Both the position numbers and the translations under genes were made by a program. A DNA stretch of 64,000 nucleotides from a phage. Below, in pieces: positions 1-13,006 of this stretch (position 1 is the first letter of the stretch; each line of letters opens with the position of its first letter). Below the pieces are notes generated by a model, which was not told the origin of the DNA, did no database searches, and saw nothing but the letters and a program-made list of their open reading frames with translations. Where the stretch lies: sequence record PZ496580.1; one strand, given 5' to 3'.

Positions 1-392
1 GATATCTCGTCGGTCATGTCTTCTTCCCCTAAGAGAGCACCATTTACCCATTCGTATTGTTCAGACACATAATCACAGATTGCATTATATTCTGCTGGGG
101 TTATGTTGTTATGTTTGTAATGTTTGAATACATTATCTCCAAAGTCTTCGGAGTGTACTTCATACATCACATTAATGATTTTCTTGACAAATCCATAATC
201 TTGCGTCTCACGCTCAAGGAAGCGAATAACCTTCACGTAATCATCAAAGTTAATCTGATCGCTGATCATCTCAGTGATCATGTAACCATTAATCCCCTCA
301 ATGCCATATGTTTCGATGTAATTATCCATACGTTCCATCATTGATTCGCGTGATTCTTCTGAAAGACGAAAATCCTGTAATTGTTTGAACAT
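1..392 (-). CDS. hypothetical protein, 5' part only (gene continues past window start)
   Basis: ATG at 392 preceded by GGGAGGT SD; frame open to position 1 (MFKQLQDFRLSEE...); absent from ORF track because no stop in window. Confidence 0.4.
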   Translation of the reverse strand, partial: MFKQLQDFRLSEESRESMMERMDNYIETYGIEGINGYMITEMISDQINFDDYVKVIRFLERETQDYGFVKKIINVMYEVHSEDFGDNVFKHYKHNNITPAEYNAICDYVSEQYEWVNGALLGEEDMTDEI

Positions 393-414
393 TTTAAACC
401 TCCCATATAACAGA

Positions 415-446
415 AAACGGGGCTAGTATAAAACTAGTCCCCGTTT
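415..446 (-). terminator. intrinsic terminator downstream of alt
   Basis: approx coords; GC-rich inverted repeat AAACGGGG..CCCCGTTT with 5-nt loop, followed on minus strand by U-rich run. Confidence 0.5.
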
Positions 447-470
447 GAGTCAACCATTATTTCTTAAAAA

Positions 471-2522
471 TTACATTTTAAATTTATCTGGCATTGCGTC
501 TACAGATACCAGATCAGCGATAAGCTGACGTAGAGTTGCCTTATCTGCTTTCTTACGTTCGGTTTTAGCTTCGGTAATGAAGCTGGAGAAAGAAAGGTCA
601 GAAGCAGGTTTAACAACACCTTCACGGATGAATGCATCACCGTCCGCGATCATCTCGCCAGATTCTTGTAATGCTGCCAGTTCATTTTTGTTCATAATAT
701 GTGCCTCAATGTAATAAGTTTCTTGTGAATCCGTTGATGCCGTAGCACGAGTTACCGTATCAAAGGATAACACAACACCGCGAGGAAGTAAAATCTCGCA
801 TTCTTTGTAAGCAAATGCCTTGTTACCTACTGGCAATACAGGGATGTTTTCCGCGCCAGCGATAGAGAAAGCAACATTAGCGCCACCTTCACCGCGAGAT
901 CCCGCCATAGAATCAACACCAGCAACGGCACTAGCCACGTTTGCATTCCACCCACCAAAAATATTAGGTGCAAGGGAAGTGCTCACATAGTTTTTAAAGT
1001 AAAACGCTTTTTGCTTACGTGCAGTTTCCCACATTTGAGACCGGAAGTCCATACCACGATACAGAATAGTACCAGGATCAAGTTTAACGCCATAGTTAGA
1101 GAAGGCATTATCCAGTGCATCACACATCTTGACCAATTCTTCTGGGTCTGCGATGCCATCAAACTCTTCCAGCTTACGATCGGTTAGGAAGTTGTTCATA
1201 TTGATGTATGCTGCATCGGCATATTCGCTCAACACAAAACCTTCCGCGCCAGGCAGGTCAAGATCAATATCTGCCATCATTTCACCCATGTTGCTAGCAA
1301 TTGCTTCAAACATACCGGAAGCAACATTACGCAGGGCATCGGTTTTAATCTGCGTGATGTGACTACGAAGCATTTCAGCTTTTACATCTGCTGGCATAGA
1401 CTGGTCTACTCGATCCATTGCTAAGGCAGTGATCTTGTTTTCGAATACTTCCTCGTTCATGATTTCTTTTAAGCGTTTGATTGATGCTGCGATAACTTCC
1501 GCAGACAACGGATCATATTGATCCTGAACTTTTACCAGTTCGCTTACTGCGTATTTTGCATCGGCCTCGCTTTCAAAAATAGTACGCATGAAACCATAGC
1601 GAGTGATAATATCACTTGTCCAATCATTCAGAGAACGCGCGGTTGAACGTTCTAAGGCTTGACGGTCAATCAGAGTATTAAACTGTTTCTTAGGTTCGGC
1701 TTCGGTGATATCTTCTTCCGGTTTAAGATTAATTTTTTCTGGATGATTCACATAGTCGCTGTTATAGGTCGCTTGAGTTTTCAGCATTTCTTCTTTAGTC
1801 AAACGAGATTTAGCCGCTACGCGTTGTTCTGCTTCCGCGTTTCGTTCTTCTTCTGACACAAGACTAGCCGCATACGCTTCATCTTTAGTCAGAGATTCGC
1901 CAGTAGCCTTAGATACCCAGCGATCACCTAAATCACTTTCTACTTTAGTGAACAAGGATTCATCAAGTTTAATCCCTTTAATCTTATCAATCGCCATCCC
2001 GCGACGTTTGACAACAACTAAAGCGATCTTTTTGCTGGTCATTACTTCCTGCTGGAATACTTCAAACTTCGGTGTACGACGCACCAAACGCTCTATAACG
2101 CGCTTAACCAGTTCGGTCTTACCTTTCATGCGGGATACGTTAAAACGGAACATAACAGCGTCTAATTGCGCTTTACGGGCTGTTTCCATAACCACATCAA
2201 AAGCACTTGCCATAACTGCAATCGGGTTATCGCCTAGACCATTTTTAAGCTGTACAATACGACCGCTTTTGTTCATTTCGCACAGTACAACATGTGCGGT
2301 CTTGTCACCCATACGAATGATTTTAGGTGTTTTGTTGGTGAAGTTACAAAGACGGACAATCACATCTTTATCGCGTGTCTGTACTGCAAAAAGCTGTTTA
2401 GGATTCTGCTTAGGCTTTAAGCACTGTACCGGGGCAATACTGCCAAAGTTTTCTTCCTCTTCTGTCAACAGCCATTTCTCGAAAGATTCAATCATTAGAT
2501 CGTCGATTTCTAAGTTAAACAT
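471..2522 (-). CDS. alt: Alt-like ADP-ribosyltransferase (virion-packaged RNAP-modifying enzyme)
   Basis: 683 aa (T4 Alt ~682 aa); C-terminal region has R (LYRGM), STS (YVSTSL) and ExE (KECEI) ART signature; sits after gene 30 as in T4. Confidence 0.7.
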   Translation of the reverse strand: MFNLEIDDLMIESFEKWLLTEEEENFGSIAPVQCLKPKQNPKQLFAVQTRDKDVIVRLCNFTNKTPKIIRMGDKTAHVVLCEMNKSGRIVQLKNGLGDNPIAVMASAFDVVMETARKAQLDAVMFRFNVSRMKGKTELVKRVIERLVRRTPKFEVFQQEVMTSKKIALVVVKRRGMAIDKIKGIKLDESLFTKVESDLGDRWVSKATGESLTKDEAYAASLVSEEERNAEAEQRVAAKSRLTKEEMLKTQATYNSDYVNHPEKINLKPEEDITEAEPKKQFNTLIDRQALERSTARSLNDWTSDIITRYGFMRTIFESEADAKYAVSELVKVQDQYDPLSAEVIAASIKRLKEIMNEEVFENKITALAMDRVDQSMPADVKAEMLRSHITQIKTDALRNVASGMFEAIASNMGEMMADIDLDLPGAEGFVLSEYADAAYINMNNFLTDRKLEEFDGIADPEELVKMCDALDNAFSNYGVKLDPGTILYRGMDFRSQMWETARKQKAFYFKNYVSTSLAPNIFGGWNANVASAVAGVDSMAGSRGEGGANVAFSIAGAENIPVLPVGNKAFAYKECEILLPRGVVLSFDTVTRATASTDSQETYYIEAHIMNKNELAALQESGEMIADGDAFIREGVVKPASDLSFSSFITEAKTERKKADKATLRQLIADLVSVDAMPDKFKM

Positions 2523-2563
2523 TTTATATCCTCTAGTTGATAACCTATAAACCTATATTTATG

Positions 2564-2588
2564 AAAAAGGGGCTTAACGCCCCTTTTA
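2564..2588. terminator. bidirectional hairpin terminator
   Basis: approx; AAAAGGGGC-loop-GCCCCTTTT with A-tract on one side and T-tract on the other. Confidence 0.45.
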
Positions 2589-2801
2589 TTATAATGCACC
2601 ATCAAGCAATTGCTCTAAGGTGTATCCTGAATAGTCTTTTTCAATCAGGATATATTTTCCTACTCGTTTAATCCAACCGCGCATTTCAACGTATTCTGCG
2701 TAGTTGATGGTACGAGTTGTTCCATCTTCCAGTAATGCAGTACCGATTTCGTTGATGCGGTCATAAGTTACGTCGGTAATGATGATTTCGATGTTAGCCA
2801 T
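2589..2801 (-). CDS. hypothetical small protein (70 aa)
   Basis: track ORF 2589..2852 trimmed to internal ATG (MANIEII...) because the upstream part overlaps the promoter -10; TAAGGAG SD. Confidence 0.5.
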   Translation of the reverse strand: MANIEIIITDVTYDRINEIGTALLEDGTTRTINYAEYVEMRGWIKRVGKYILIEKDYSGYTLEQLLDGAL

Positions 2802-2837
2802 TTGATACTCCTTAGTAGTTCGTTTCGGTATGTGTGC

Positions 2838-2866
2838 ATTATAGGGGATCACCGATCCCCTGTCAA
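2838..2866 (-). promoter_or_regulatory. sigma70-type early promoter cassette (PeSL-like)
   Basis: approx; TTGACA-17-TATAAT with palindromic spacer GGGGATCGGTGATCCCC, then conserved leader and SD. Confidence 0.6.
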
Positions 2867-2874
2867 CAACTTTT

Positions 2875-3393
2875 TTAGTTATTTTTTAATTGCTCATCTT
2901 GCAATAGGGCAATCACATGCTGGCGATGTTCTTCCGATTGAGGCACACCGAAAAAGTTTGTTTTGTAGAAATACTCTAATCGGTCTTCTCGTGTGCTCTC
3001 TTCCATCATGATCGCTGGTAGACCAAGATTGCGGAAACGTCGCTTTTCTGCTGGCGTAAAATCGCTGTAATACAGCATAGAATCATCATTACCAGCAATG
3101 CTAAACTCATCCTTCATGAAGGAGAATATTGCGTTTAAACGCTGTTTACCGTCCACGATTTCGATCTCATAGCGAGAGCCATCATCAATCTTAGCCATTG
3201 CGATAGCGCCTACCGGAAAATCATTAATCAGGTTTTCGATAAACATACGTTTGTTTTCTGTGTCCCATACCAAAGGACGCTGATAATCTGGGTTCATGTT
3301 GATATAGCCATCTTCTAACCATGCTTCGTAAACAGAGATGACAAAGTTTTTAGTATTGGTATAGTAACGGCGTTTAGGCGTTAAACGGTTCAT
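2875..3393 (-). CDS. DUF262 / ParB-Srx-like nuclease-NTPase domain protein
   Basis: 172 aa; DYQRPLVW ... DGKQRL motifs match the DUF262 N-terminal signature; ATGA overlap with upstream small ORF. Confidence 0.5.
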   Translation of the reverse strand: MNRLTPKRRYYTNTKNFVISVYEAWLEDGYINMNPDYQRPLVWDTENKRMFIENLINDFPVGAIAMAKIDDGSRYEIEIVDGKQRLNAIFSFMKDEFSIAGNDDSMLYYSDFTPAEKRRFRNLGLPAIMMEESTREDRLEYFYKTNFFGVPQSEEHRQHVIALLQDEQLKNN

Positions 3394-3569
3394 AATGTGC
3401 TTACCTTTTCAATATATGCGTCCGCATACTGGCGAATGCTCATTTCTTCTCGTACTGCTGCTACAAATTCTTTCATGGATTCAAACCATTTGTAGGTGTC
3501 GCGATACATGACCAACTCTTCCCAAGTAAGATCGCAAATCTCTTTACCGTGTAGTTGTGGTGTTATCAT
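3390..3569 (-). CDS. hypothetical small protein (59 aa, below ORF-track cutoff)
   Basis: ATG overlaps stop of zinc-ribbon gene (ATGA) and its stop overlaps the DUF262 ATG (ATGA); AGGAGAA SD. Confidence 0.4.
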   Translation of the reverse strand: MITPQLHGKEICDLTWEELVMYRDTYKWFESMKEFVAAVREEMSIRQYADAYIEKVSTL

Positions 3570-3901
3570 AATATAGTTCTCCTGAATGGATCATCACGTA
3601 AATCAATATCTTTTAAGAACTCATCCCATGAATGGCGGATATTGTTCTTAATTCTCCAGATAAGCGCAGGGATTGAACGCTCACCCATCTGGAAGTAAGG
3701 ATCATATGATCCGTATGCCCAATATGCTACTACAATTCCACAATCAGCGCAATAGTATTCTATCTCGCTTGCTGGCGACCAAAGTCCATCAATATGATCG
3801 GTGATCTTGCTTTCAATGTTATGACTATGGCAATTAGGGCAACGTATGCAATGACCTTGTTTATCGTAATTTGACGTTAGAGAATACTTAAACAATCTCA
3901 T
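3566..3901 (-). CDS. zinc-ribbon protein (CxxC..CxxC)
   Basis: 111 aa with CIRCPNCH and CADCG cysteine pairs; translationally coupled to the upstream methyltransferase-like gene. Confidence 0.45.
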   Translation of the reverse strand: MRLFKYSLTSNYDKQGHCIRCPNCHSHNIESKITDHIDGLWSPASEIEYYCADCGIVVAYWAYGSYDPYFQMGERSIPALIWRIKNNIRHSWDEFLKDIDLRDDPFRRTIL

Positions 3902-4617
3902 TATAGATCCTTATTGGCTTCAAATACTGCCTTTGCGAATCCTCGCGGGGTAAGTGACCTGATAGTCTTTGTTCTGGTTCCTTTCCCGCCTAGCTTAGAA
4001 TGCTGTTTGCTGTACCCTTTATTAATCGGCAACGGTTTCTTTTCTGGCATTATAAAGCCTTGTCCGGTCCACAAGCAAGTCTTTTTCGGGTACATATCAC
4101 GGGAGGCAATATACTCAGGAAACGTAGGATGTATATCATCTTCCGGCAAATAACCGCCATATTCCCACGGATGGAACATGTAATCAGGCTTACGCCACAT
4201 GCTAGAGATAACGCTTACAGGATTCTCTATCATGTAGGGAACTCCTAGCCATTCACCCAAATAAGCGGTTATTTTAGCTGCCCTTACATCATGAATTTGA
4301 ATTAATGGTCCTTGCTCTCGTTTCTTTCGTTCAAAGTGTGCAGCGCCACTAACAGCTAAATTGGTGCATGGTGGGAATGCAAATATAATATCCGGTTTCC
4401 CCCATTCAAGGTCCATTGCTCTTTCCAGCCAGTTCAAATCAATCCATGTGTTTACATAGGTAATGTTTGGATGTTCAAATCGGGTATTATATTTTTTGTA
4501 TGTACCGTGGTCGCCATCGTCAGCATTAAAGCAGATCACCTTATGACCTGCTTTAGCCCATTCTAGCCCCATTATCCCCGATCCGTCAAAGTTGCAGAAT
4601 ATTAATTTTTGTTTCAT
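3901..4617 (-). CDS. minimal C5-cytosine methyltransferase-like protein (no target-recognition domain)
   Basis: 238 aa; motif I-like FCNFDGSG, motif IV-like FPPCT (Pro-Cys nucleophile), motif VI-like ENP; much shorter than canonical DNA C5-MTases. Confidence 0.4.
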   Translation of the reverse strand: MKQKLIFCNFDGSGIMGLEWAKAGHKVICFNADDGDHGTYKKYNTRFEHPNITYVNTWIDLNWLERAMDLEWGKPDIIFAFPPCTNLAVSGAAHFERKKREQGPLIQIHDVRAAKITAYLGEWLGVPYMIENPVSVISSMWRKPDYMFHPWEYGGYLPEDDIHPTFPEYIASRDMYPKKTCLWTGQGFIMPEKKPLPINKGYSKQHSKLGGKGTRTKTIRSLTPRGFAKAVFEANKDL

Positions 4618-4859
4618 ATACGCCCCTTTAACCCAACACAGATTTTAGAAGGTTCTTTACCGTGCCACATTAAGTAAAGTCCGTTAGTGCGGCCTTGTTT
4701 TGTATATGATTCTTTTCTAATCTTCTTATAGTGTCGTGCTTCCTCAACCGATTGTTTAGAATACCAATCATAAAGGAAGATGAACAAAGGCCAACCATTA
4801 GCGGCCTTAATGCAGTTATTAAGAAATTCCTTATTGCGTTTAATTAATTTTCTTTTCAC
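4614..4859 (-). CDS. hypothetical protein (81 aa, basic)
   Basis: ORF track; overlaps neighbours by 4 nt at both ends (coupled). Confidence 0.4.
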   Translation of the reverse strand: MKRKLIKRNKEFLNNCIKAANGWPLFIFLYDWYSKQSVEEARHYKKIRKESYTKQGRTNGLYLMWHGKEPSKICVGLKGRI

Positions 4860-5107
4860 GCTGCCCCCGTTGGTTTGATAGTAACAGAATCTAAAAGACC
4901 TTTGTTAGCCAGTTCGCGGCAAGTTTTCAGATCCGCAACTTCCCAGCCAGCCGCAATCAGGTTATCAATCAGGCTGTTAGCAACTTCTTCGCTCATGAAA
5001 GAGCACTGTTTGCCGATGGTGTAGCGTACACGCTGTAATTTCAGTTTACGGAAGCCTTTAACGTTCAGGTCTTTAGCGATTTTCTTTGCGGTTTCGATGT
5101 TAGCCAT
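4856..5107 (-). CDS. hypothetical protein (83 aa)
   Basis: ORF track; ATG follows conserved leader and AGGAGAATC SD downstream of promoter cassette. Confidence 0.5.
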   Translation of the reverse strand: MANIETAKKIAKDLNVKGFRKLKLQRVRYTIGKQCSFMSEEVANSLIDNLIAAGWEVADLKTCRELANKGLLDSVTIKPTGAA

Positions 5108-5147
5108 TGTTTGATTCTCCTAAGTAGTATCTCGTCTTGATGTGTGT

Positions 5148-5176
5148 ATTATAGGGGATGGTGTCTCCCCTGTCAA
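5148..5176 (-). promoter_or_regulatory. sigma70-type early promoter cassette
   Basis: approx; TTGACA-17-TATAAT, GGGGA..TCCCC palindromic spacer. Confidence 0.55.
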
Positions 5177-5190
5177 CACTTTTTATAAAA

Positions 5191-5358
5191 TTATTTGTTA
5201 ATTTCCGGTGCGTTGCTCGGATAGTAACCTTCTTTAACTCCGAGGTATTTCGCAACCATCCCTACAATCTTCTGTGCTACTACAATGTCAAATTTCAGAT
5301 AATCTTCGCCGTGGGTTTCAATGATATATGCTTCACATGCTGCTTTAGTCTCGAACAT
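5191..5358 (-). CDS. hypothetical small protein (55 aa), copy 1 of duplicated gene
   Basis: MFETKAACEAYI...YYPSNAPEINK; about 90 percent nt identity to second copy at 8945..9112; follows conserved leader and SD. Confidence 0.45.
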   Translation of the reverse strand: MFETKAACEAYIIETHGEDYLKFDIVVAQKIVGMVAKYLGVKEGYYPSNAPEINK

Positions 5359-5391
5359 TTTGATTCTCCTATTTCGTTTCGGTATGTGTGT

Positions 5392-5420
5392 ATTATAGGG
5401 GATCTCCCGATCCCCGTCAA
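5392..5420 (-). promoter_or_regulatory. sigma70-type early promoter cassette
   Basis: approx; TTGACG-17-TATAAT. Confidence 0.5.
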
Positions 5421-5434
5421 CAACTTTTTTAAAA

Positions 5435-5716
5435 TTATTCGTGATTAGTTTCGATATTGTACATTTTGCACCAGTTCAGCCAATCGCCCAGATCTTGATA
5501 GTTGATGCTTTTATCTGCTGCCATAGTTTTTGTCTTGATACCCATATGTGCGTTATGAGTAAGCATTTTTACAGTGAACTCGATTTTATCGCCTTTAGCT
5601 TTAACATCAACCAGTTTGGTCCACTGGCTACCAGCGCCGCGAATGTTCATACCAACGATGTTTCCGATGTATGCTTCTTTGTTTTTCAGGATTTCGGTTG
5701 CTTTGATGAATTTCAT
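5435..5716 (-). CDS. hypothetical protein (93 aa)
   Basis: ORF track; conserved leader and SD upstream. Confidence 0.5.
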   Translation of the reverse strand: MKFIKATEILKNKEAYIGNIVGMNIRGAGSQWTKLVDVKAKGDKIEFTVKMLTHNAHMGIKTKTMAADKSINYQDLGDWLNWCKMYNIETNHE

Positions 5717-5749
5717 TTTTGATTCTCCAGTTCGTTTCGGTATGTGTGT

Positions 5750-5778
5750 ATTATGCTATGTTCTTACTTTGGTGTCAA
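5750..5778 (-). promoter_or_regulatory. sigma70-type early promoter cassette
   Basis: approx; TTGACA-17-CATAAT. Confidence 0.5.
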
Positions 5779-5786
5779 CAACTTTT

Positions 5787-6056
5787 TTAGATATTTTCAG
5801 AAATAAATTTTAAAACTTGACGTAAATGTTTCTCATCTTTGATAGTCGCCGGAAGTTCTTCTTTTACTTCCTGTGCAAGATAGATATTTCCGTTCCAAGT
5901 GAAAGATCCGTCTTCGTTTACGCGATAGCTGAACATCCACTCGCAATCATTTTCGATTTCATATACACACAGAAGGGTGTAATCATTAAAGCTGTTGATT
6001 TCAAGGTCGAGGCCGTGACGTTTTGCAAAGTTGGTAGTGGTTTTAGTCAATGCCAT
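5787..6056 (-). CDS. hypothetical protein (89 aa)
   Basis: ORF track; conserved leader and SD. Confidence 0.5.
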   Translation of the reverse strand: MALTKTTTNFAKRHGLDLEINSFNDYTLLCVYEIENDCEWMFSYRVNEDGSFTWNGNIYLAQEVKEELPATIKDEKHLRQVLKFISENI

Positions 6057-6096
6057 TGTTTGATTCTCCTAAGTGGTATCTCGTTTCGATAGGTGT

Positions 6097-6125
6097 ATTA
6101 TGATATAGGCGTGATCTGGTGTCAA
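6097..6125 (-). promoter_or_regulatory. sigma70-type early promoter cassette
   Basis: approx; TTGACA-17-CATAAT. Confidence 0.5.
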
Positions 6126-6146
6126 CAACTTTTTTAAAATTTAGGC

Positions 6147-6172
6147 AATAAAAAGCCGACACTAAGGTCGGC
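6147..6172 (-). terminator. intrinsic terminator (copy 1 of duplicated module)
   Basis: approx; GCCGAC-loop-GTCGGC followed on minus strand by TTTTTATTGCC; near-identical copy at ~6655..6680. Confidence 0.5.
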
Positions 6173-6177
6173 ACATT

Positions 6178-6495
6178 TTAAAAATTCTTGCTATATATGC
6201 AAGCCTCATAATCTAGAGGATGACCGCCAATCCTACCAGGCTTAATATTCCAACCGCATCGATATTTGCTGACCATGCTAACCGTTTCGGTTCTTAGAGC
6301 ATTTCTTTGCAAATCATACCCCCTAAATTCTTGTCTATAAGGACAGTCCGCTTTGCAAGTTGGCGGTTCTACGTCATTTAGCGGGTCAGAAGCAGTTGGC
6401 TTTATTATCAATTCTTTGTTTGCAATAATCATAAGCACATCCCATTGAAGGCAATTTAACATCTTCGCAATAAGTGTTGAATCCGTCAAATACAA
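6178..6495 (-). CDS. hypothetical Cys-containing protein (start uncertain)
   Basis: ORF track 105 aa; overlaps 6386..6565 in another frame; likely internal start (MIIANKEL...). Confidence 0.3.
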   Translation of the reverse strand: MYLTDSTLIAKMLNCLQWDVLMIIANKELIIKPTASDPLNDVEPPTCKADCPYRQEFRGYDLQRNALRTETVSMVSKYRCGWNIKPGRIGGHPLDYEACIYSKNF

Positions 6496-6565
6496 TCACT
6501 TCGTATTTGACTCCATCGGCGATAGCTTTTACTTTATACCATCCATGCTTGTATAAAATCTTCAT
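6386..6565 (-). CDS. hypothetical small protein (~59 aa)
   Basis: track ORF trimmed to ATG after GAGGGA SD in conserved leader. Confidence 0.35.
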   Translation of the reverse strand: MKILYKHGWYKVKAIADGVKYEVIVFDGFNTYCEDVKLPSMGCAYDYCKQRIDNKANCF

Positions 6566-6599
6566 CTTTATTTCCCTCAATCTCGTTTCGATGGGTGTA

Positions 6600-6628
6600 T
6601 TATGCTATAGGCGTGATCTGGTGTCAAT
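6600..6628 (-). promoter_or_regulatory. sigma70-type early promoter cassette
   Basis: approx; TTGACA-17-CATAAT. Confidence 0.5.
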
Positions 6629-6654
6629 GCCTTTTTTTTTAAAAATTTTATGCA

Positions 6655-6680
6655 ATAAAAAGCCGACACTAAGGTCGGCT
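6655..6680 (-). terminator. intrinsic terminator (copy 2 of duplicated module)
   Basis: approx; same GCCGACACTAAGGTCGGC hairpin plus T-tract as at ~6147..6172. Confidence 0.5.
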
Positions 6681-6687
6681 AATAAAA

Positions 6688-6996
6688 TCATTTAGACAAA
6701 TAATCATTCTGTGCAATCCGGTCGGCGTATGCTGGTGTTATGTCAATCGCCAGCACTTTAACGCGTGCTTTCTTGCGACCTGAGTTTTCTCGTAACCAGT
6801 GCTCATGACCGTGAACATTTTTATACTTTGATGCTGTTTCGAAAGTACGGATCGGACCTGGGTAATCAGCGTAAAGGATCTCTAGGTCTTCGGTGATGTA
6901 AAAATATACATCATAATTACTGTTCTCTAGTTTAAGCAGAGAGTTGCGTAATTGTGGTAAATTCTCGCGGGTAAATTCAACTACAAGATTTTTCAT
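6688..6996 (-). CDS. paralog family member A (HxHW / VLAxDV motif family)
   Basis: track ORF trimmed to ATG with GAGGAT SD; shares YFYI..D, H.HW and VLAIDI motifs with five neighbouring ORFs. Confidence 0.5.
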   Translation of the reverse strand: MKNLVVEFTRENLPQLRNSLLKLENSNYDVYFYITEDLEILYADYPGPIRTFETASKYKNVHGHEHWLRENSGRKKARVKVLAIDITPAYADRIAQNDYLSK

Positions 6997-7021
6997 AGTG
7001 ATATCCTCATTCAGATAGATT

Positions 7022-7040
7022 AAAAGGGGCTTAACGCCCC
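7022..7040 (-). terminator. hairpin terminator
   Basis: approx; GGGGC-TTAA-GCCCC with flanking A/T runs. Confidence 0.4.
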
Positions 7041-7045
7041 ATATA

Positions 7046-7333
7046 TTAAAACAGTCCTTCCTGTACACCGTAGTAGAGTTCATCGCTGATAATTTCATTA
7101 ATGCGACGGTGTGCATATTCCTGATTTGCGAAGTTGTCAGCAAGTTCTACTTTAGTTTCGCCGTCATGAGTCCATTTAGTGATAACTTTACCATCTGCAA
7201 ATTTGAAGTTGAACTCTTTAGCTACTGCATCGCGTACCAGACGTGCAAACTTGTTGTTACGGATTGCATTATCGGTCTCGTGTGCAGCGTGAGCAAATTT
7301 GTTAACTTTCAGCGTGATAGTGATGTATGCCAT
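7046..7333 (-). CDS. hypothetical protein (95 aa)
   Basis: ORF track; conserved leader and SD. Confidence 0.5.
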   Translation of the reverse strand: MAYITITLKVNKFAHAAHETDNAIRNNKFARLVRDAVAKEFNFKFADGKVITKWTHDGETKVELADNFANQEYAHRRINEIISDELYYGVQEGLF

Positions 7334-7373
7334 TGTTTGATTCTCCTAAGTGGTATCTCGTTTCGATGGGTGT

Positions 7374-7402
7374 ATTATGCTATACACCCGATCTTATGTC
7401 AA
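7374..7402 (-). promoter_or_regulatory. sigma70-type early promoter cassette
   Basis: approx; TTGACA-17-CATAAT. Confidence 0.5.
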
Positions 7403-7407
7403 CACTT

Positions 7408-7686
7408 TTATAAAATAATTTTTTGATATTTTTCTATGATGTTTGAGTAGGTCACATCAACCGCTAGCACCGTTGCTTCGAATCCACCGTCTAGCCAATG
7501 GCTATGGTCATGATCGTGAAAGAAACCAAGACCAGTACGAAGACCTTCTTTATATTCGGCGCGTACATTCAGTTTGTCGTCGATAAACAGATAAAACCAT
7601 GAATTTTTACTAGGATTGATGATACAACCTTTCAGATTAGGGAGAATATCACGACTAAGAATAAACTTATCACCTACTTTGAACAT
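7408..7686 (-). CDS. paralog family member B
   Basis: trimmed to MFKVGD start with GTGAGGA SD; motifs WFYLFIDD, HDHSHWL, VLAVDV. Confidence 0.5.
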   Translation of the reverse strand: MFKVGDKFILSRDILPNLKGCIINPSKNSWFYLFIDDKLNVRAEYKEGLRTGLGFFHDHDHSHWLDGGFEATVLAVDVTYSNIIEKYQKIIL

Positions 7687-7709
7687 AATATTGTCCTCAC
7701 TTATAAAGT

Positions 7710-8009
7710 TTAACTGTTGTTTTTCTCGTAATGCTGCATACGTGCTTGATCTGCTTCCGCTGGTGATAGATTCCATGCGATCACTACAACTTCTGACGCA
7801 TCATGATCATTATCACTTACCCAATGATTATGATTCATACAATTGTTTGCTATCGCGTGAGCAAATGATCTCATTACAGGAGACGTATAATCATAGTAAC
7901 GGATTTTCAGATTTTCATCAACGTACAAATAGATCGTATAAGGTTTATATTCAGTAACCAGTAACAGACAGTTACGCAATTCTGGGAAAATCTTTTTAGT
8001 TAATTTCAT
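7710..8009 (-). CDS. paralog family member C
   Basis: ORF track; motifs IYLYVDE, NHNHW, VVVIAWN. Confidence 0.45.
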   Translation of the reverse strand: MKLTKKIFPELRNCLLLVTEYKPYTIYLYVDENLKIRYYDYTSPVMRSFAHAIANNCMNHNHWVSDNDHDASEVVVIAWNLSPAEADQARMQHYEKNNS

Positions 8010-8211
8010 ATTCTAGTTCTCCGTAATACACGGTAATCCATTTTTCTTCATACTTTGTATCTTTCCAGCACACAATCCCGTTTACTGCGCAATCTTTGGA
8101 ATTGACGAATGATTCATATTGTTCTGCATCTTCCATCATTGCATGAGCGGTCTTTTCATCGAATATATCGCAGATCGCTTTATATGCTCGATAATCTTTA
8201 AATTTGCTCAT
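7996..8211 (-). CDS. hypothetical protein, MSKFKDY tandem duplicate 1
   Basis: trimmed to MSKFKDYRAY; paralogous to adjacent 8214..8423 (shared MSKFKDY..AY...MMEDA..W(K)(D/E)T.Y). Confidence 0.4.
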   Translation of the reverse strand: MSKFKDYRAYKAICDIFDEKTAHAMMEDAEQYESFVNSKDCAVNGIVCWKDTKYEEKWITVYYGELEYEIN

Positions 8212-8213
8212 AA

Positions 8214-8423
8214 TTAACACCATTCAAGAGTTTTTGAAAACACGTCTATCCATTGTTGAGTGTAGCATGTTTCTTTCCATGATACAATACGAGTAGAATA
8301 ATGGTTTTTGTTTCCAGAAAAGGACGGGCATTTTGATGCATCTTCCATCATCTTTTCGGCGAACTCTGGTTCGTATACCCGCAGGATCTGTTGATATGCT
8401 TTATAATCTTTAAATTTGCTCAT
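8214..8423 (-). CDS. hypothetical protein, MSKFKDY tandem duplicate 2
   Basis: ORF track; same N-terminal nucleotide motif as neighbour. Confidence 0.45.
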   Translation of the reverse strand: MSKFKDYKAYQQILRVYEPEFAEKMMEDASKCPSFSGNKNHYSTRIVSWKETCYTQQWIDVFSKTLEWC

Positions 8424-8688
8424 AATTGTTAACTACCTTATCAGCTTCTTTTATTGTTTTTACATCAACTGCGATAATCCGTAAAGGTTCGTCGAAGGTC
8501 CACCAATGATCGTGAATATCAGCTTGTGATTTATCACCAAAGGAATCACGAATATCATTTTTACATTTATAGCTAATATGGCCTTCATAGTCAACATAAA
8601 GGTAATTATCGAAAATCGGCGTTTTTAAGATCATACCGAAAAATCTTTCTTTGTGTGTCTTATCCAGCGTTGCAGTAATTCGCATCAT
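8410..8688 (-). CDS. paralog family member D
   Basis: ORF track; motifs NYLYVDYEG, HDHWW, IIAVDV; GAGGAA SD. Confidence 0.5.
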   Translation of the reverse strand: MMRITATLDKTHKERFFGMILKTPIFDNYLYVDYEGHISYKCKNDIRDSFGDKSQADIHDHWWTFDEPLRIIAVDVKTIKEADKVVNNYEQI

Positions 8689-8700
8689 AATATATTCCTC

Positions 8701-8880
8701 TTAGAAAGGGATGGTCATTTCTTGAGCTTGTACATTCTCATTAGGATTAAACTTCATCCAGCCGATATTGTCTACCAGCATATGCACATTTTTATCATAT
8801 CCTACGTGGGTAGTCAATACTGTATGTGCTTTACCTTCAATTATGAGTTCCATGTACTTCTGAACTTCGATAGCTTTCAT
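8701..8880 (-). CDS. hypothetical small protein (59 aa, below ORF-track cutoff)
   Basis: ATG directly after conserved leader and SD (cat tttgattctcc on plus strand); MKAIEVQKYMELIIEGKAH... Confidence 0.4.
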   Translation of the reverse strand: MKAIEVQKYMELIIEGKAHTVLTTHVGYDKNVHMLVDNIGWMKFNPNENVQAQEMTIPF

Positions 8881-8912
8881 TTTGATTCTCCGTTTGTTGT
8901 CTTGATGGGAGT

Positions 8913-8941
8913 ATCTTACTACTCCCTTTAATCATTGTCAA
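8913..8941 (-). promoter_or_regulatory. sigma70-type early promoter cassette
   Basis: approx; TTGACA-17-TAAGAT; -10 embedded in GGGAGTAGTAAGATACTCCC palindrome. Confidence 0.45.
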
Positions 8942-8944
8942 CTA

Positions 8945-9112
8945 TTATTTGTTAATTTCTGGTGCGTTGCTCGGATAGTAACCTTCTTTAACACCCAGAT
9001 ATTTTGCAACCATTCCGGTGATCTTCTGTGCTACTACGATATCGAATTTCAGGTAGTCTTCACCGTGGTTTGCTACAATGTATGCTTCGCATTCTGCTTT
9101 AGTCTGGAACAT
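8945..9112 (-). CDS. hypothetical small protein (55 aa), copy 2 of duplicated gene
   Basis: MFQTKAECEAYIVANHGEDYLKFDIVVAQK...; near-identical to 5191..5358. Confidence 0.45.
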   Translation of the reverse strand: MFQTKAECEAYIVANHGEDYLKFDIVVAQKITGMVAKYLGVKEGYYPSNAPEINK

Positions 9113-9147
9113 TTTTTGATTCTCCTATATCTCGTTGGTATGTGTGC

Positions 9148-9176
9148 ATTATAGGGGATCACCGATCCCCTGTCAA
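9148..9176 (-). promoter_or_regulatory. sigma70-type early promoter cassette
   Basis: approx; TTGACA-17-TATAAT, spacer GGGGATCGGTGATCCCC identical to cassette at 2838..2866. Confidence 0.6.
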
Positions 9177-9181
9177 CAACT

Positions 9182-9475
9182 TTATAATGCTTTATATGCG
9201 TATTTCATAAATTTGTCTGCCACTTCATTGGCATGTTCAGCTTCTACGCCTGATTCGAGAACAATAGCTAGGTCGGTTTCGTCATTCCCGCCGTACCAAT
9301 GATTTGATGTTCGATTTTTTTCAATTGGAAATTGGTCACTTTTATCTGTGCGACAAAATACATCTAAATGCTCGTCGATGTAAAAGATCCAATCTTCATA
9401 AAGAATAACGGTATTAGCCAGATTTTTATTGCCTTCAACGAAAGGTTCGGCTACAAACAAATTAGTATGTTCCAT
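9182..9475 (-). CDS. paralog family member E (divergent)
   Basis: trimmed to MEHTNLF start with GAGGAA SD; motifs IFYIDEHLDV, SNHW, AIVLESG. Confidence 0.4.
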   Translation of the reverse strand: MEHTNLFVAEPFVEGNKNLANTVILYEDWIFYIDEHLDVFCRTDKSDQFPIEKNRTSNHWYGGNDETDLAIVLESGVEAEHANEVADKFMKYAYKAL

Positions 9476-9491
9476 AACAATTTCCTCAAAA

Positions 9492-9683
9492 TTATACAAC
9501 TTCGTAAACTTCCCAATGTTCAGCGCCAGCACGCTTAACGAAAAGGTTTTCTTTGATGTTATTCATAAACGTATGAATGGATTTAATGCGGTTGGAAGGT
9601 TTCCAGTCTTCGTTAGCATTGCGGCGATACATTATAACATTACCAGATCGCTTATATTCAGCAACCATTTTAAGACCACACAT
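9492..9683 (-). CDS. hypothetical protein (63 aa)
   Basis: ORF track; GAGGAT SD. Confidence 0.4.
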   Translation of the reverse strand: MCGLKMVAEYKRSGNVIMYRRNANEDWKPSNRIKSIHTFMNNIKENLFVKRAGAEHWEVYEVV

Positions 9684-9732
9684 AATATTATCCTCAATTT
9701 GTGGGAGAGTATTACCCCTCCCGATGTTTGTT

Positions 9733-9761
9733 ATATTACATTACACAAAATGGCGTGTCAA
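9733..9761 (-). promoter_or_regulatory. sigma70-type early promoter
   Basis: approx; TTGACA-17-TAATAT, -35 lies inside 3' end of upstream ORF. Confidence 0.4.
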
Positions 9762-10061
9762 TGCTTCTTTTGCTGTTCCGCTAAGACTTTCGATCTCGCC
9801 TGGCATAACATCAACTGCCAGAACTTCTACAACATCCTCGGACCCTAACCAGTGAGTATGACCTTTGTAGAACTTGATGACCAGACTACCTTCCTCGTCC
9901 CATTTAACGCTATCGCTAGCCCACCACACATCACCGTCGATAAAGTTGATGTAAAGCACACTACGCCACATTGAATTAATTACTTTCAATACTGCGCCTT
10001 TCATCTCTTCCACGGTATGGTCTTCCATTTTGAAGACCTCACCTACCTGAACTTTTGCCAT
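9741..10061 (-). CDS. paralog family member F
   Basis: ORF track; motifs LYINFIDGD, GHTHWL, VLAVDVM; GAGAGG SD. Confidence 0.5.
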   Translation of the reverse strand: MAKVQVGEVFKMEDHTVEEMKGAVLKVINSMWRSVLYINFIDGDVWWASDSVKWDEEGSLVIKFYKGHTHWLGSEDVVEVLAVDVMPGEIESLSGTAKEALTRHFV

Positions 10062-10081
10062 TTAGTTTTACCTCTCGTTAA

Positions 10082-10261
10082 TTACATTACGATCACGCCA
10101 GCCGTTGAAAGTTGATGTTTCAACTGAGCATTTTCTGCTACCGTCAAATCAATGATTTCTTGTGACGCTGCAATCATATAGCCATTGGTGATATTGTTTT
10201 GCATCAGTTCAATGGTTTCTTCGTTGTAGCGGATTTTAGCGATGATTTCGTTGAAGTTCAT
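10082..10261 (-). CDS. hypothetical small protein (59 aa)
   Basis: track ORF 10082..10327 trimmed to MNFNEII start; upstream part is the promoter/leader itself. Confidence 0.45.
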   Translation of the reverse strand: MNFNEIIAKIRYNEETIELMQNNITNGYMIAASQEIIDLTVAENAQLKHQLSTAGVIVM

Positions 10262-10295
10262 AATTGATTCTCCTAGTTCGTTTCGGTATGTGTGT

Positions 10296-10324
10296 AGTAT
10301 AGGGGATCGGTGATCCCCTGTCAA
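10296..10324 (-). promoter_or_regulatory. sigma70-type early promoter cassette
   Basis: approx; TTGACA-17-TATACT; GGGGATCACCGATCCCC spacer. Confidence 0.5.
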
Positions 10325-10337
10325 CAACTTTTTTGAA

Positions 10338-10814
10338 TTATTTTTCTTGATGCTCGCGCTCGTACTTTTCGAAATAAAATTCTACTGGCTGGTCGTGGAT
10401 TGAAAGCAAGCCAAAGCGTTTAGCCGCTCGTAATCCCATATTGCGCTGAATGTACTTCTGGAAGTTCTCGCGTATACACTTACGCCAGTATTCTAAGCCC
10501 ATACAGCTTTTATAAAGATTGCATTGCACACATGCCGGATTCATGTTATCAAGTATATCATGCTCCGGTTTATGCATTCCTACAACCTTATACTTCCACG
10601 ATCCATCATCGTTACGGGAAATGCGCCCATTTTCATCATAGACTACTTTTGAGCGTCGTAATACTGGTTTGATATGATCCGCGTGCCAGCGTTCTCCTAG
10701 TACCTCTCCGCAATAGGCACAACGTCCACCGTATTTCATTTTCAGGATCTGGCGTTGCTCTTTCTTTGACAATTTTTTAGGTTTAGGGGCTTTCGCCCCT
10801 TCATTATCACACAT
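10338..10814 (-). CDS. HNH endonuclease (free-standing, candidate homing endonuclease)
   Basis: 158 aa; CAYCGEV...HADHIKP...C..CN motif typical of HNH; start overlaps 3' end of ligase gene by 8 nt. Confidence 0.6.
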   Translation of the reverse strand: MCDNEGAKAPKPKKLSKKEQRQILKMKYGGRCAYCGEVLGERWHADHIKPVLRRSKVVYDENGRISRNDDGSWKYKVVGMHKPEHDILDNMNPACVQCNLYKSCMGLEYWRKCIRENFQKYIQRNMGLRAAKRFGLLSIHDQPVEFYFEKYEREHQEK

Positions 10815-12303
10815 CGAATACCTCTTTTACTGTATTTGCAGTGGTCTTGTCGTAGCGAATACGTTTGATGATCGGGAGAAATAAAGAGAACTCCGGTTCA
10901 TCTTCTTTACGTGATTTGCTGCGGATATACCCGTTGCATGTCATCTCAATGACTTTTCCGATCAGGTTATGACGGTCAGCCCATAACATTTCTCGGTCAA
11001 GTTCATTTCGACGATCGAACGGAATTACACGTTCAATACCATCATCACCTTTTTCGGTTGTGGTGTCGGTCAATCCCGATCCGGTGTTAGTCATCATTCG
11101 TCCGCACGCACTACGGACAGTAAAACCGCCTACCTTATTAGGATCTTTACTATGCGGATATACATCAACAATTTCCGCGTCGAAGTCAATCACTTCTTTA
11201 AATTTAACCTGATCTTTACTGCGACGATCTTCAAATACACCATGTAAATTTTTAAGGATAATACCTTCTAAGCCCATGTTTACATAGCGATGATATACTT
11301 CGCGAGCTTCATCTATATTGTTAACTACAGTGTTTTCGATTATCTGAACACGAGGATCGTTAAGTTCTTCAACAATCTGTTTTAGTTCTTCGAATCGATC
11401 TTTATATTGCTTCGTTGCTTTCTCGTTTCCGTAATACACATCACGGTCGATAACATCCCAGACAGTGTAAACAATACATTGGGCTTCTTCTTTTGGAATA
11501 GTTCCTTTCAGTGATTTGTTGAGGATGCCATTTCCGGTCTGACGATCTGCAACAACGGATTCTTTCACTGCTTCCGCTACTGGCGTTAATGGCATTTCCT
11601 CTTCTTCAAATATCCATGACAGAGTACCGTCATAAACGCTCTCAACGAAGTTCTGCGCTGGTGTTTGCGAAAGGGTAGGCATATATACCAATTCGCCATC
11701 TAGAACAATTCCACGTCCTCGTAGACGCTCTAAAACCGCAAACAAATCATCAAGCCCCTGATAGGTATTACCTGAACGGGTATAGATTGCTAATGTTTCC
11801 CCGTCAATATCAGCCATACCACGAGCGCCATCGCTTTTAAGTTGTGCATATGCAGGATATTTGATATTAGCAATGGCCTTATCAGAATATGACGATGCAA
11901 GGTGGCACGGTTGCTGGGGGATCAGTTTCTTCCATACCTTGTTTGCAGTGGTAGCGGAACAACCGCATTCCAGGTCACGATTCAGGACCATCATTGCAAC
12001 TTTAGCATCATCTTCTGACAAGCAAGTCAGAGTATCGGTAACTAGCTGTAATGCTGCATTGCCAGTTACTTGACGTGTGGCAAGTTTATTTTTAAAGACT
12101 TGTAATGCACCGGATAAAGACAATACAGACGAATATCGCGATGGTTTATCGTATTTCTTTACGCCAAACGTAACCTGTTTGCAATATGCCAGATAAAAGC
12201 ATTCTTTCAGAGTGTCATTGCTTGCTGATTCTTTCAGGATCTTTTCTTTCAGCGATGTTTTGTCTGTTGCTGCAAGCTGATTAATGATATTAAGAATTGA
12301 CAT
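10807..12303 (-). CDS. 30: ATP-dependent DNA ligase
   Basis: ~498 aa; collinear with T4 gp30 from memory (KADGARC-type adenylation Lys region LKSDGARG, GLEGIILKN, C-terminal IKRIRYDKT); track start is GTG, likely true ATG 6 nt downstream. Confidence 0.85.
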   Translation of the reverse strand: MSILNIINQLAATDKTSLKEKILKESASNDTLKECFYLAYCKQVTFGVKKYDKPSRYSSVLSLSGALQVFKNKLATRQVTGNAALQLVTDTLTCLSEDDAKVAMMVLNRDLECGCSATTANKVWKKLIPQQPCHLASSYSDKAIANIKYPAYAQLKSDGARGMADIDGETLAIYTRSGNTYQGLDDLFAVLERLRGRGIVLDGELVYMPTLSQTPAQNFVESVYDGTLSWIFEEEEMPLTPVAEAVKESVVADRQTGNGILNKSLKGTIPKEEAQCIVYTVWDVIDRDVYYGNEKATKQYKDRFEELKQIVEELNDPRVQIIENTVVNNIDEAREVYHRYVNMGLEGIILKNLHGVFEDRRSKDQVKFKEVIDFDAEIVDVYPHSKDPNKVGGFTVRSACGRMMTNTGSGLTDTTTEKGDDGIERVIPFDRRNELDREMLWADRHNLIGKVIEMTCNGYIRSKSRKEDEPEFSLFLPIIKRIRYDKTTANTVKEVFDV

Positions 12304-12769
12304 TTTCACCTCGTTTTGTTAAACGTTCACGAATATCATTGAGGATACTACAAAATTCTGATTCGGTCAATATGGTCTTTAACGGATCAGTTCCACCTAT
12401 GCTATGACGTAATTTCTTATTTCCGGTAGCGAGTAACGCTTTACAAAATTCCGGGTTATTCCTTGCCATCGTAACAAATGCCAGATGTACCAGTCTGTAA
12501 TAATGCTCACTCATTCGATGAATCGGGCGACCCTGAAAATATAACATGTGATTCTCTATCTTTTCAGTCCTTCCGGTTCTTTTTGCTTTGCCACCGTACA
12601 TCAAAAAGATTTCTCTTTGTCTCTGAGGGTTCTTAAATCTTAGCCCCTGTAAAAATCCTTCTGTGCTGTTAATATCGCAACCAAATAGACGGAATGGTCT
12701 TTTATTGAAATTACTCAATTCACCAGATGGATAAGGTCCACCCGCATAGATATCAATTTCAGAAGTCAT
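12290..12769 (-). CDS. NADAR (YbiA/DUF1768)-like protein, candidate ADP-ribose-processing glycohydrolase
   Basis: 159 aa; GELSNF, STEGFLQGLRF and KALLATGNKKL motifs resemble NADAR family signatures. Confidence 0.5.
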   Translation of the reverse strand: MTSEIDIYAGGPYPSGELSNFNKRPFRLFGCDINSTEGFLQGLRFKNPQRQREIFLMYGGKAKRTGRTEKIENHMLYFQGRPIHRMSEHYYRLVHLAFVTMARNNPEFCKALLATGNKKLRHSIGGTDPLKTILTESEFCSILNDIRERLTKRGENVNS

Positions 12770-12923
12770 TGAAACTAATCTCGCTAATCAGAGAGAACGG
12801 ATCATAATCGTCATGAGGAATATCGATAGTAATCGAATGAGGATTTACCCATACACCAAACTGGTCTTCTTCGGTGAATACTTCGGTATGGATTTCGTGG
12901 ATGTTTACATTCATAGTTTTCAT
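12759..12923 (-). CDS. hypothetical small protein (54 aa, below cutoff)
   Basis: stop overlaps ATG of NADAR gene; weak AAGGAA SD. Confidence 0.3.
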   Translation of the reverse strand: MKTMNVNIHEIHTEVFTEEDQFGVWVNPHSITIDIPHDDYDPFSLISEISFNDF

Positions 12924-12977
12924 AATAAAAATTCCTTAATAATCAATAACTTACAAAATCATATAGCCAAAATATAG

Positions 12978-12998
12978 GCGGGATTATTACCCGCCGTT
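12978..12998 (-). terminator. intrinsic terminator after gene 31
   Basis: approx; GGCGGG-loop-CCCGCC then U-rich tail on minus strand. Confidence 0.45.
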
Positions 12999-13006
12999 TA
13001 AAATCA

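Follow-up and report, generated by a model that had tools for sequence, protein, structure and literature searches.

Arbiol, Comeau, Kutateladze, Adamia and Krisch compared the phages RB49 and phi1 in 2010 and described approximately 50 promoter-early stem-loops (PeSLs) per genome (Genome Biol Evol 2:140; PMC2839356). In a PeSL, consensus sigma-70 boxes are combined with an AT-rich region, a Gn-loop-Cn stem-loop that takes one of five alternative positions, a Shine-Dalgarno (SD) sequence, and a start codon; the elements cluster upstream of ORFans within hyperplastic regions (PMC2839356). They were defined and tested with respect to promoter, terminator, and mini-circle in the RB49 alt-gene 30 region, which covers open reading frames (ORFs) 185-212: PeSL206/205 and PeSL193/192 were cloned as promoters, the former being strong (approximately 13,000 Miller units); the stem-loop of PeSL211/210 decreased downstream lacZ as much as rrnB T1 did in uninfected E. 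coli, where no phage proteins were present; and mini-circles arising from PeSL x PeSL crossovers around ORF192 and ORF210 were sequenced in RB49/phi1 (PMC2839356). Such elements (PeSLs/PmSLs) were later also described in T4/PST and KVP40/nt-1 (Comeau, Arbiol and Krisch 2014; PMC4122927). Here, we analyzed an array of repeated promoter-leader modules on the minus strand of positions 2799-10349 in a 64,000-nucleotide stretch of phage DNA (sequence record PZ496580.1; hereafter, the window), which a first-pass annotation had read as PeSL-like cassettes in the alt-ligase hyperplastic region of a T4-type phage.

The window was approximately 95-96% identical to RB49-group phages, and Brandy, JK32, SAP, and RB49 were approximately 95% identical over the 8.2-kb region. 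Between 64 and 65 phage records matched the region, all of them RB49-type and of the genus Krischvirus, and the same was found with the 12-kb alt-ligase interval. Against the RB49 RefSeq record, the region was colinear gene for gene from RB49p184 (alt) to RB49p213 (gene 30 ligase); therefore, this ORF184-ORF213 mapping shows the earlier label of an alt-ligase hyperplastic region to be correct. All genes and modules in the region were on the minus strand, and each module took up the space separating a small hypothetical ORF, at its stop codon, from the ATG of the following one. ORF186, ORF192, ORF210, and ORF211 were missing from this phage, which carries its own combination of cassettes, and the ORF195/196-like segment at 6173-6579, missing in phi1, was kept. 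In the GenBank record of GEC-3S, the homologous sites bear promoter annotations with -35/-10 signals.

Alignment to the tested elements indicated that the module at 9176 was RB49 PeSL206/205 plus one extra A before the ATG, and that the module at 10324 carried the promoter and hairpin of PeSL211/210 (GGGGATCACCGATCCCC versus GGGGATCACGTATCCCC), being also close to PeSL210/209. The module at 5420 was identical to RB49 PeSL192/191 from the -35 through the ATG. Every PeSL feature that can be examined in a sequence was present, namely the sigma-70 boxes, the AT-rich tract and stop codon, the position of the stem-loop, the SD and ATG, the copy number, the association with insertions or deletions (indels), and the homology, and the stem positions agreed with the published PeSL subclasses. 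Consequently, the array is a member of the known family at its type locus; the PeSL reading of the first-pass annotation is borne out by the orthology with PeSL206/205 and PeSL211/210, and amounts to a correct rediscovery of an array already described and experimentally characterized in this phage group at this locus. The modules and the RB49/phi1 PeSLs share genus, locus, composite anatomy, orthologous cassettes, and association with ORFan indels; nothing differs in kind, and only the combination of cassettes and a converted leader (module 7402) are peculiar to this phage.

Taken together, the modules are very probably PeSLs, that is, the composite regulatory cassettes of RB49/phi1-type phages in the alt-gene 30 hyperplastic region. 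The A-rich tract and the consensus sigma-70 promoter (TTGACA-17-TATAAT) would serve the unmodified host RNA polymerase in early infection, whereas the G-rich/C-rich stem-loop would be transcribed only in read-through RNA from upstream and would attenuate or end such RNA. A short, unstructured A/C-rich leader is followed by the stereotyped SD GGAGAATCAA. Because approximately 50-100 bp are repeated every ~250-1500 bp in the same orientation, phage homologous recombination could cross over between cassettes, by which the ORFs between them would be deleted, inserted, or swapped, each exchanged ORF traveling with its own promoter. By analogy with RB49, promoter activity, hairpin-dependent lower expression, and mini-circles presumably apply to this phage as well.

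The more distant elements of T4/PST and KVP40/nt-1 are also promoter-plus-stem-loop cassettes in hyperplastic regions and adjoin indels between sister phages; however, they have their own stem consensus (A3-4G3-loop-C3T3-4 or AGNA-loop-TCNT), some use T4-type or MotA-dependent promoters, and their stem-loops usually lie upstream of the -35. Integron cassettes and lambdoid "morons" resemble PeSLs in that small accessory ORFs move with their own expression signals and that circular intermediates have been proposed or shown. Unlike in integrons, PeSL exchange proceeds by general homologous recombination without an integrase or attC/attI, and in contrast to morons, it is the regulatory sequence itself that serves as substrate for recombination. 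As published in 2010 for this phage group and locus, PeSLs account for the shuffling of small accessory genes in T4-like phages: the genes move as self-expressing cassettes, and no dedicated recombinase is needed. The present addition is modest: an independent computational confirmation using ten genomes beyond the original two-genome comparison, and another natural cassette combination, in which the chimeric junctions are clean and one leader has been converted. No new question is opened.

Repeated modules and their ribosome-binding sites

The array consisted of an intergenic module of approximately 85 bp in 10 clear copies and one marginal copy (9761). The module had an A-rich tract with GTTG at its end, then TTGACA and, after 17 bp of spacer, a -10 resembling TATAAT; the A/C-rich leader that followed (ACACACATACCGAAACGA or ACACCCATCGAAACGAGA) ran up to GGAGAATCAA and the ATG. 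An AT-rich tract of the AAAAAAGTTG type preceded the -35, and the stop codon of the upstream gene was located approximately 10-25 nt upstream in 10 copies, while in copy 9761 it lay inside the spacer; the downstream genes were small hypothetical ORFs. The TTGAC, -10, and SD columns of the module alignment were invariant, and the match to TTGACA-17-TATAAT was 11-12 of 12 positions in nine copies and 10 of 12 in two. The whole 64-kb window contained approximately 24 complete modules with SD and ATG, 12 of which were between 390 and 10349.

A repeat search returned one family with six copies of 72 nt (D1; at 2816, 5126, 5370, 5728, 9126, and 10274), another with four copies of 89 nt (D2; at 5101, 6050, 6552, and 7327), and a duplicated terminator block (D5; 6130-6172 and 6637-6679, 91% identical). 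The pattern TTGACA-N17-TAWAMT with at most one mismatch was found 36 times in the window versus 2.87 ± 1.81 times in shuffles; 33 of these matches were on the minus strand and 11 were within 2838-10324. A generic sigma-70 scan was not enriched overall (35 sites versus 31.9 expected), and its nine top matches in 2000-12500 (11-12 of 12 positions) were all modules of the array. Over the 63-nt ungapped core, identity was 75-84% among modules 2866, 5420, 9176, and 10324 and 76-84% among 6125, 6627, and 7402, whereas random pairs of 63-mers gave 26 ± 5.5% with a maximum of 44%. Copy 9761, with a -10 of TAATAT, reached only 37-44%, that is, the top of the random range.

These results uphold, on computational re-alignment and far above chance, the repeats that the first-pass annotation had reported, although two of its statements need qualification. 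It had counted at least 11 copies, of which 10 are clear and the eleventh (9761) is marginal by core identity. It had also called the copies at 2838, 9148, and 10296 near-identical, which applies to the promoter core only; over 72 nt, 9126-9197 and 10274-10345 were 81% and 86% identical, respectively, to 2816-2887. The duplicated terminator-plus-promoter block that it had placed at approximately 6120..6172 and 6623..6680 was recovered with 111 of 144 aligned columns identical, the identity being near-perfect from the terminator stem to the leader.

An SD-like purine run was present in all 11 copies (GGAG in nine, GGGA in 6627, and GAGG in 9761), followed by ATG 5-8 nt further on, and the ORFs starting at these ATGs were homologous to RB49 ORFs. 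GGAGAATCAA occurred 13 times exactly in the window and 19 times with at most one mismatch, versus 6.0 expected, nearly always as the SD of a PeSL-driven ORF (e.g., 5111-5120, 5360-5369, 5719-5728, 6060-6069, 7337-7346, 8882-8891, 9116-9125, and 10264-10273). The consensus of the RegB/S1 target in T4 is GGAGRAYARAA (PMC1702504). GGAGAAUCAAA, and likewise the shared SD GGAGAATCAAA, fitted this consensus at 10 of 11 positions, with C for A at position 8; accordingly, this GGAG-A-rich SD may leave the cassette-driven mRNAs open to inactivation by RegB as in T4.

Stem-loops within the modules

Each module was folded with 30 nt of upstream context. The predicted stem-loop was located in the spacer of 2866, 5176, 5420, 9176, and 10324 (and, elsewhere in the window, of 21014 and 44211), over the -10 of 7402 and 8941 (elsewhere 453, 18190, 18471, 43988, 44491, 45509, and 52679), and downstream of the -10 of 9761 and 59331. 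The z-scores of the minimum free energy were -2.4 to -4.0 for stem-bearing modules and +0.6 to +2.1 for 5778, 6125, and 6627. The spacer hairpin was thus a feature of only five of the 11 copies, and GGGGATCGGTGATCCCC, described earlier as a perfect palindrome, is not one: its arms match perfectly over 7 bp (8 bp if the flanking A/T is counted) and enclose a 3-nt loop.

Orthologous stems differed by compensatory double changes. GGGGATAT/ATATCCCC in RB49 corresponds to GGGTGTAT/ATACACCC in the window and in Brandy, and GGGAGTA/TACTCCC versus GGGGGTA/TACCCCC is a further such difference between orthologues; G-U intermediates were also present. These changes and intermediates argue for conservation of the pairing, and specifically of pairing in the sense-strand RNA. 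The cassettes resemble intrinsic terminators in that read-through RNA acquires a GC-rich hairpin where a gene ends; unlike in such terminators, the cassette hairpins are not followed by a U tract, and for this reason we did not file them as canonical intrinsic terminators. A scan for a hairpin plus U tract found canonical terminators in the region at 6155-6172, 6661-6680, and 7026-7040 only. The proposal that the hairpin stops upstream transcripts while the same cassette initiates new ones is the published model; the position of the hairpin varies, however, and as the U tract is lacking, the hairpins may reduce read-through otherwise than by canonical termination. A search of 1-13000 against Rfam 15 (E <= 1) assigned no family to the leader or the hairpins, the sole match being at chance level (E = 0.81; 25.7 bits versus a gathering threshold of 50).

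One alternative is that the hairpins are stabilizers of RNA 3' ends or processing sites (e.g., barriers to 3' exonucleases) that set the half-life of early mRNA and are not terminators. The spacer and -10 hairpins would suit this role in lacking the U tract that true terminators of the same region possess, and cleavage at the SD GGAGAATCAAA, with its near-complete fit to the RegB/S1 consensus, would fall just past the hairpin and produce hairpin-ended upstream fragments. In contrast, the fall in lacZ caused by the PeSL211/210 stem-loop was similar to that with rrnB T1 in E. coli cells that were uninfected and therefore devoid of RegB (PMC2839356). We regard this alternative as unlikely.

Another alternative is that the inverted repeats act chiefly as DNA, either as an operator that shuts off the early promoters or as a cruciform or target that starts recombination, which would be compatible with the modules being PeSLs. 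A 7-3-7 inverted repeat filling the space between the -35 and -10 occupies a classical operator position, the spacer hairpins have no U tract, and Arbiol et al. speculated on a GGGG...CCCC-binding protein (PMC2839356). A further observation in its favor concerns the 3-nt loop of the spacer hairpin, which was GGT or its reverse complement ACC at orthologous cassettes of different Krischvirus genomes with identical flanks, for example upstream of ORF209, where JK32 and Brandy differ. Among nine genomes, PeSL206/205 occurred in each of the four possible combinations of loop (GGT or ACC) with -10 type (TATAAT-G or TATACT-A). The sites of this flip are 2843-2861, 9153-9171, and 10301-10319 in the window and approximately 10062 in Brandy, 9575 in JK32, 12952 in SAP, and 15716 in KMB43; it is not mentioned by Arbiol et al. 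(PMC2839356). A scan of IMG/VR with TTGACAGGGGATCNNNGATCCCCTATA for loop variants gave two contigs only, too few to judge loop inversion. The flip could be a footprint of DNA hairpin or cruciform formation, by way of template switching or arm-to-arm exchange, and if so, such structures might also nick the DNA or start PeSL-PeSL recombination. Very short tracts of ectopic conversion between paralogous cassettes would be a simpler explanation. We see a small chance that the palindromic spacers are active DNA-level sites beyond being templates for RNA hairpins.

Three lines of evidence speak against a chiefly DNA-level role. The stems differ between copies with the pairing kept, and the G-U pairs (G-T in DNA) form only in the sense-strand RNA; the variable location of the hairpin (spacer, -10, downstream, or upstream) suits an RNA or single-strand structure better than one operator; and the RB49 stem-loop alone lowered lacZ in E. 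coli without phage proteins (PMC2839356). Such a role therefore appears quite improbable.

The spacers were also rich in GATC, with 15 sites in 408 spacer bases versus 0.0057 per base genome-wide, 6.5-fold denser than in the window. GATC-bearing spacers were found in 10 of the 24 modules, and GATC was held at spacer positions 4-7 even though the three preceding bases varied; GATC was not avoided in the window (observed/expected 1.04). A Dam methylation signal was considered and rejected, since common descent links the copies and GAT forms pairs with ATC in the conserved leader CCCATC, lengthening the stem. This GAT-ATC pairing, rather than Dam methylation, probably explains the conservation of the spacer GATC.

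Apart from the modules, a second duplicated element was found at 2565-2594 and 7022-7051, downstream of the homologues of ORF185 and ORF198. This element, a terminator hairpin (AAAAGGGGC-TTAAC-GCCCCTTTT), is 90% identical over 30 nt between the two copies and is flanked by A and T runs on both sides, so that bidirectional termination is possible.

Recombination between cassettes

Positions 400-12400 of the window were compared by chained BLAST alignments with the alt-ligase intervals of ten relatives (RB49, GEC-3S, phi1, Brandy, JK32, SAP, ELT3, MIZ4, KMB43, and ECD7). Nine distinct indel events were distinguished, six of which had both ends in modules, and the modules cover approximately 9% of the interval. 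The homology overlap at the junction was 24-97 bp in five of the six module-module indels; that of ORF192 was 5 bp only.

Chimeric cassettes were found at two junctions. Module 2866 has the promoter and hairpin of RB49 PeSL187/186 and the leader of PeSL186/185, with the crossover in the shared ATACCGAAACGAA, and Brandy and JK32 carry a hybrid cassette with the promoter of module 5420 and the leader of module 5176. Furthermore, the leader of module 7402 (7331-7360) contains, between GAGATA and ATGGCA, a patch of approximately 25 nt of the 6125 type (CCACTTAGGAGAATCAAACA), whereas the orthologous site of RB49 and Brandy reads CACTTTCTAACTAGGAGAATCAAATT; in its promoter and hairpin, the window module matches Brandy. 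This leader looks like a conversion patch of approximately 25 nt between paralogous cassettes. The junctions inside modules and the chimeras are in agreement with the earlier proposal that the cassettes serve as recombination substrates.

It might be argued that the modules are merely strong early promoters without a role in recombination, that their likeness results from selection toward an optimum of sigma-70 boxes, UP element, and SD, and that indels lie at gene boundaries for reasons of viability. The most conserved columns are indeed the functional ones (-35, -10, and SD), and the enrichment of indel ends is by our estimate only marginal under a gene-boundary null. On the other hand, the likeness (75-84% over 63 nt) reaches into the spacer, the leader ACACACATACCGAAACGA, and the upstream GTTG, which have no known promoter function; the junctions have overlaps of 24-97 bp, and the junction cassettes are clean chimeras of both flanking cassettes; the leader patch of module 7402 was copied from another cassette; and the mini-circles of RB49/phi1 have crossovers inside PeSLs (PMC2839356). 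With the chimeric junctions already refuting most of it, this explanation is highly improbable.

Several observations count against reading the array as PeSLs that both control read-through and recombine. Modules 5778, 6125, and 6627 have no stem within the promoter; a canonical terminator (GCCGACCTTAGTGTCGGC, then TTTTTATT) lies upstream of the AT-rich tract in both 6125 and 6627, and 5778 has no stem-loop at all. None of the spacer or -10 hairpins passed the hairpin-plus-U-tract scan, the stem being followed by UAUAAU or by no U run, and the "terminator" of the cassettes may in fact be attenuation, processing, or RNA stabilization. Promoter and terminator activity are taken over for this phage from the RB49 orthologues. 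Finally, three of the nine indels (the 172-bp insertion at 3394-3565, the loss of 4617-4842 in JK32, and the right end of the KMB43 replacement at 7445-8204, the other end of which is 17 bp from module 7402) are not at modules, and since by our estimate approximately 11 of approximately 30 gene boundaries carry a module, positional enrichment alone is only marginal under the gene-boundary null. Because of this weakness, the argument for recombination rests on the junction homology and the chimeras.

An integron-like mobile element with its own enzyme was rejected as a candidate: a Pfam scan of eight ORFs of the region found no recombinase or integrase able to act on the cassettes, and the crossovers are plain homologous ones at varying points in the repeat. 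As a separate observation, the homologues of ORF191 and ORF205 (5191-5358 and 8945-9112, minus strand) are paralogues of 55 amino acids with 89% protein identity and 85% DNA identity over 172 nt. Since both are directly behind a PeSL, a whole cassette-plus-ORF unit has been duplicated, the copies being 3.75 kb apart.

Coordinates and neighboring genes

The modules, together with one further module outside the array, and the indels that involve modules are listed in Table 1.

Table 1 Modules of the alt-ligase interval and indels with junctions in modules.
Feature	Coordinates	Strand	Description
Module 453	390..478	-	further PeSL-type module outside the array, downstream of alt; hairpin over -10; homologous site in GEC-3S annotated as promoter
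Module 2866	2799..2891	-	PeSL upstream of ORF185 homologue (2589-2801); -35 2861-2866, -10 2838-2843; spacer hairpin AGGGGATC-GGT-GATCCCCT at 2843-2861
Module 5176	5105..5201	-	PeSL upstream of ORF190 homologue (4856-5107); imperfect spacer hairpin GGGGAGACACCATCCCC
Module 5420	5356..5445	-	PeSL upstream of ORF191 homologue (5191-5358); -35 TTGACG; spacer hairpin GGGATC-GGGA-GATCCC
Module 5778	5714..5803	-	PeSL-type promoter/leader upstream of ORF193 homologue (5435-5716); no stable hairpin predicted (z = +1.4)
Module 6125	6054..6172	-	terminator-plus-promoter block upstream of ORF194 homologue (5787-6056); canonical terminator GCCGACCTTAGTGTCGGC + TTTTTATT at 6155-6172; promoter 6097-6125, hairpin-free
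Module 6627	6563..6680	-	duplicate terminator-plus-promoter block; small ORF starts at 6565; terminator 6661-6680, promoter 6599-6627
Module 7402	7331..7427	-	PeSL upstream of ORF198 homologue (7046-7333); hairpin over -10, GGGTGTAT-AGCATA-ATACACCC, lengthened by GAT/ATC pairing
Module 8941	8878..8966	-	PeSL upstream of ORF204 homologue (8701-8880); hairpin GGGAGTA-GTAAGA-TACTCCC over -10 (TAAGAT)
Module 9176	9110..9201	-	PeSL upstream of ORF205 homologue (8945-9112); spacer hairpin
Module 9761	9681..9786	-	marginal; upstream of ORF207 homologue (9492-9683); TTGACA-N17-TAATAT; GGGAG..CTCCC hairpin downstream of -10
Module 10324	10259..10349	-	PeSL between HNH endonuclease gene (ORF212 homologue, 10338-10814) and ORF209 homologue (10082-10261); spacer hairpin GGGGATC-ACC-GATCCCC, the reverse complement of the 2866 spacer
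ORF186 indel			junction in module 2866; missing from window, JK32, ECD7
ORF191 indel	5199-5358		module 5176 x module 5420; missing from Brandy, JK32
ORF192 indel			A-rich upstream edge of module 5420; ORF192 in RB49 only
Segment indel	6173-6579		module 6125 x module 6627; missing from phi1, GEC-3S, ELT3, ECD7
ORF210 or ORF210+211 indel			module 10324; missing from window, Brandy, JK32, ELT3
MIZ4 2.5-kb deletion	2878-5358		joins module 2866 to module 5420

The ORF187 homologue (2875-3393, minus strand; 172 amino acids) had only an N-terminal GmrSD/DUF262 domain (GmrSD_N, Pfam E = 4e-20). Beyond this domain, the Pfam scan of the eight ORFs gave HNH for 10338-10814, a sub-threshold zinc ribbon for 3566-3901, and no match for the others. 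The ORF189 homologue (3901-4617, minus strand; 238 amino acids), which carries the annotation DNA (C-5 cytosine) methyltransferase in relatives, had no Pfam match at E <= 0.01.

In the 172-bp insertion between the ORF187 and ORF188 homologues, an ORF of 59 amino acids (MITPQLHGKEICDLTWEEL...) was found at 3390-3569 on the minus strand. It had no PeSL at its borders and no Pfam match, and it was missing from all 10 compared relatives; tblastn detected it in the phages FL04 and kaaroe only, with 100% amino acid identity. Two adjacent small ORFs at 7996-8223 and 8214-8423 (minus strand), with no PeSL between them, represent a tandem small-gene duplication in the hyperplastic region: they begin with the same 43 nt (AATTATGAGCAAATTTAAAGATTAT...; 88% identical), the copies being 212 bp apart.

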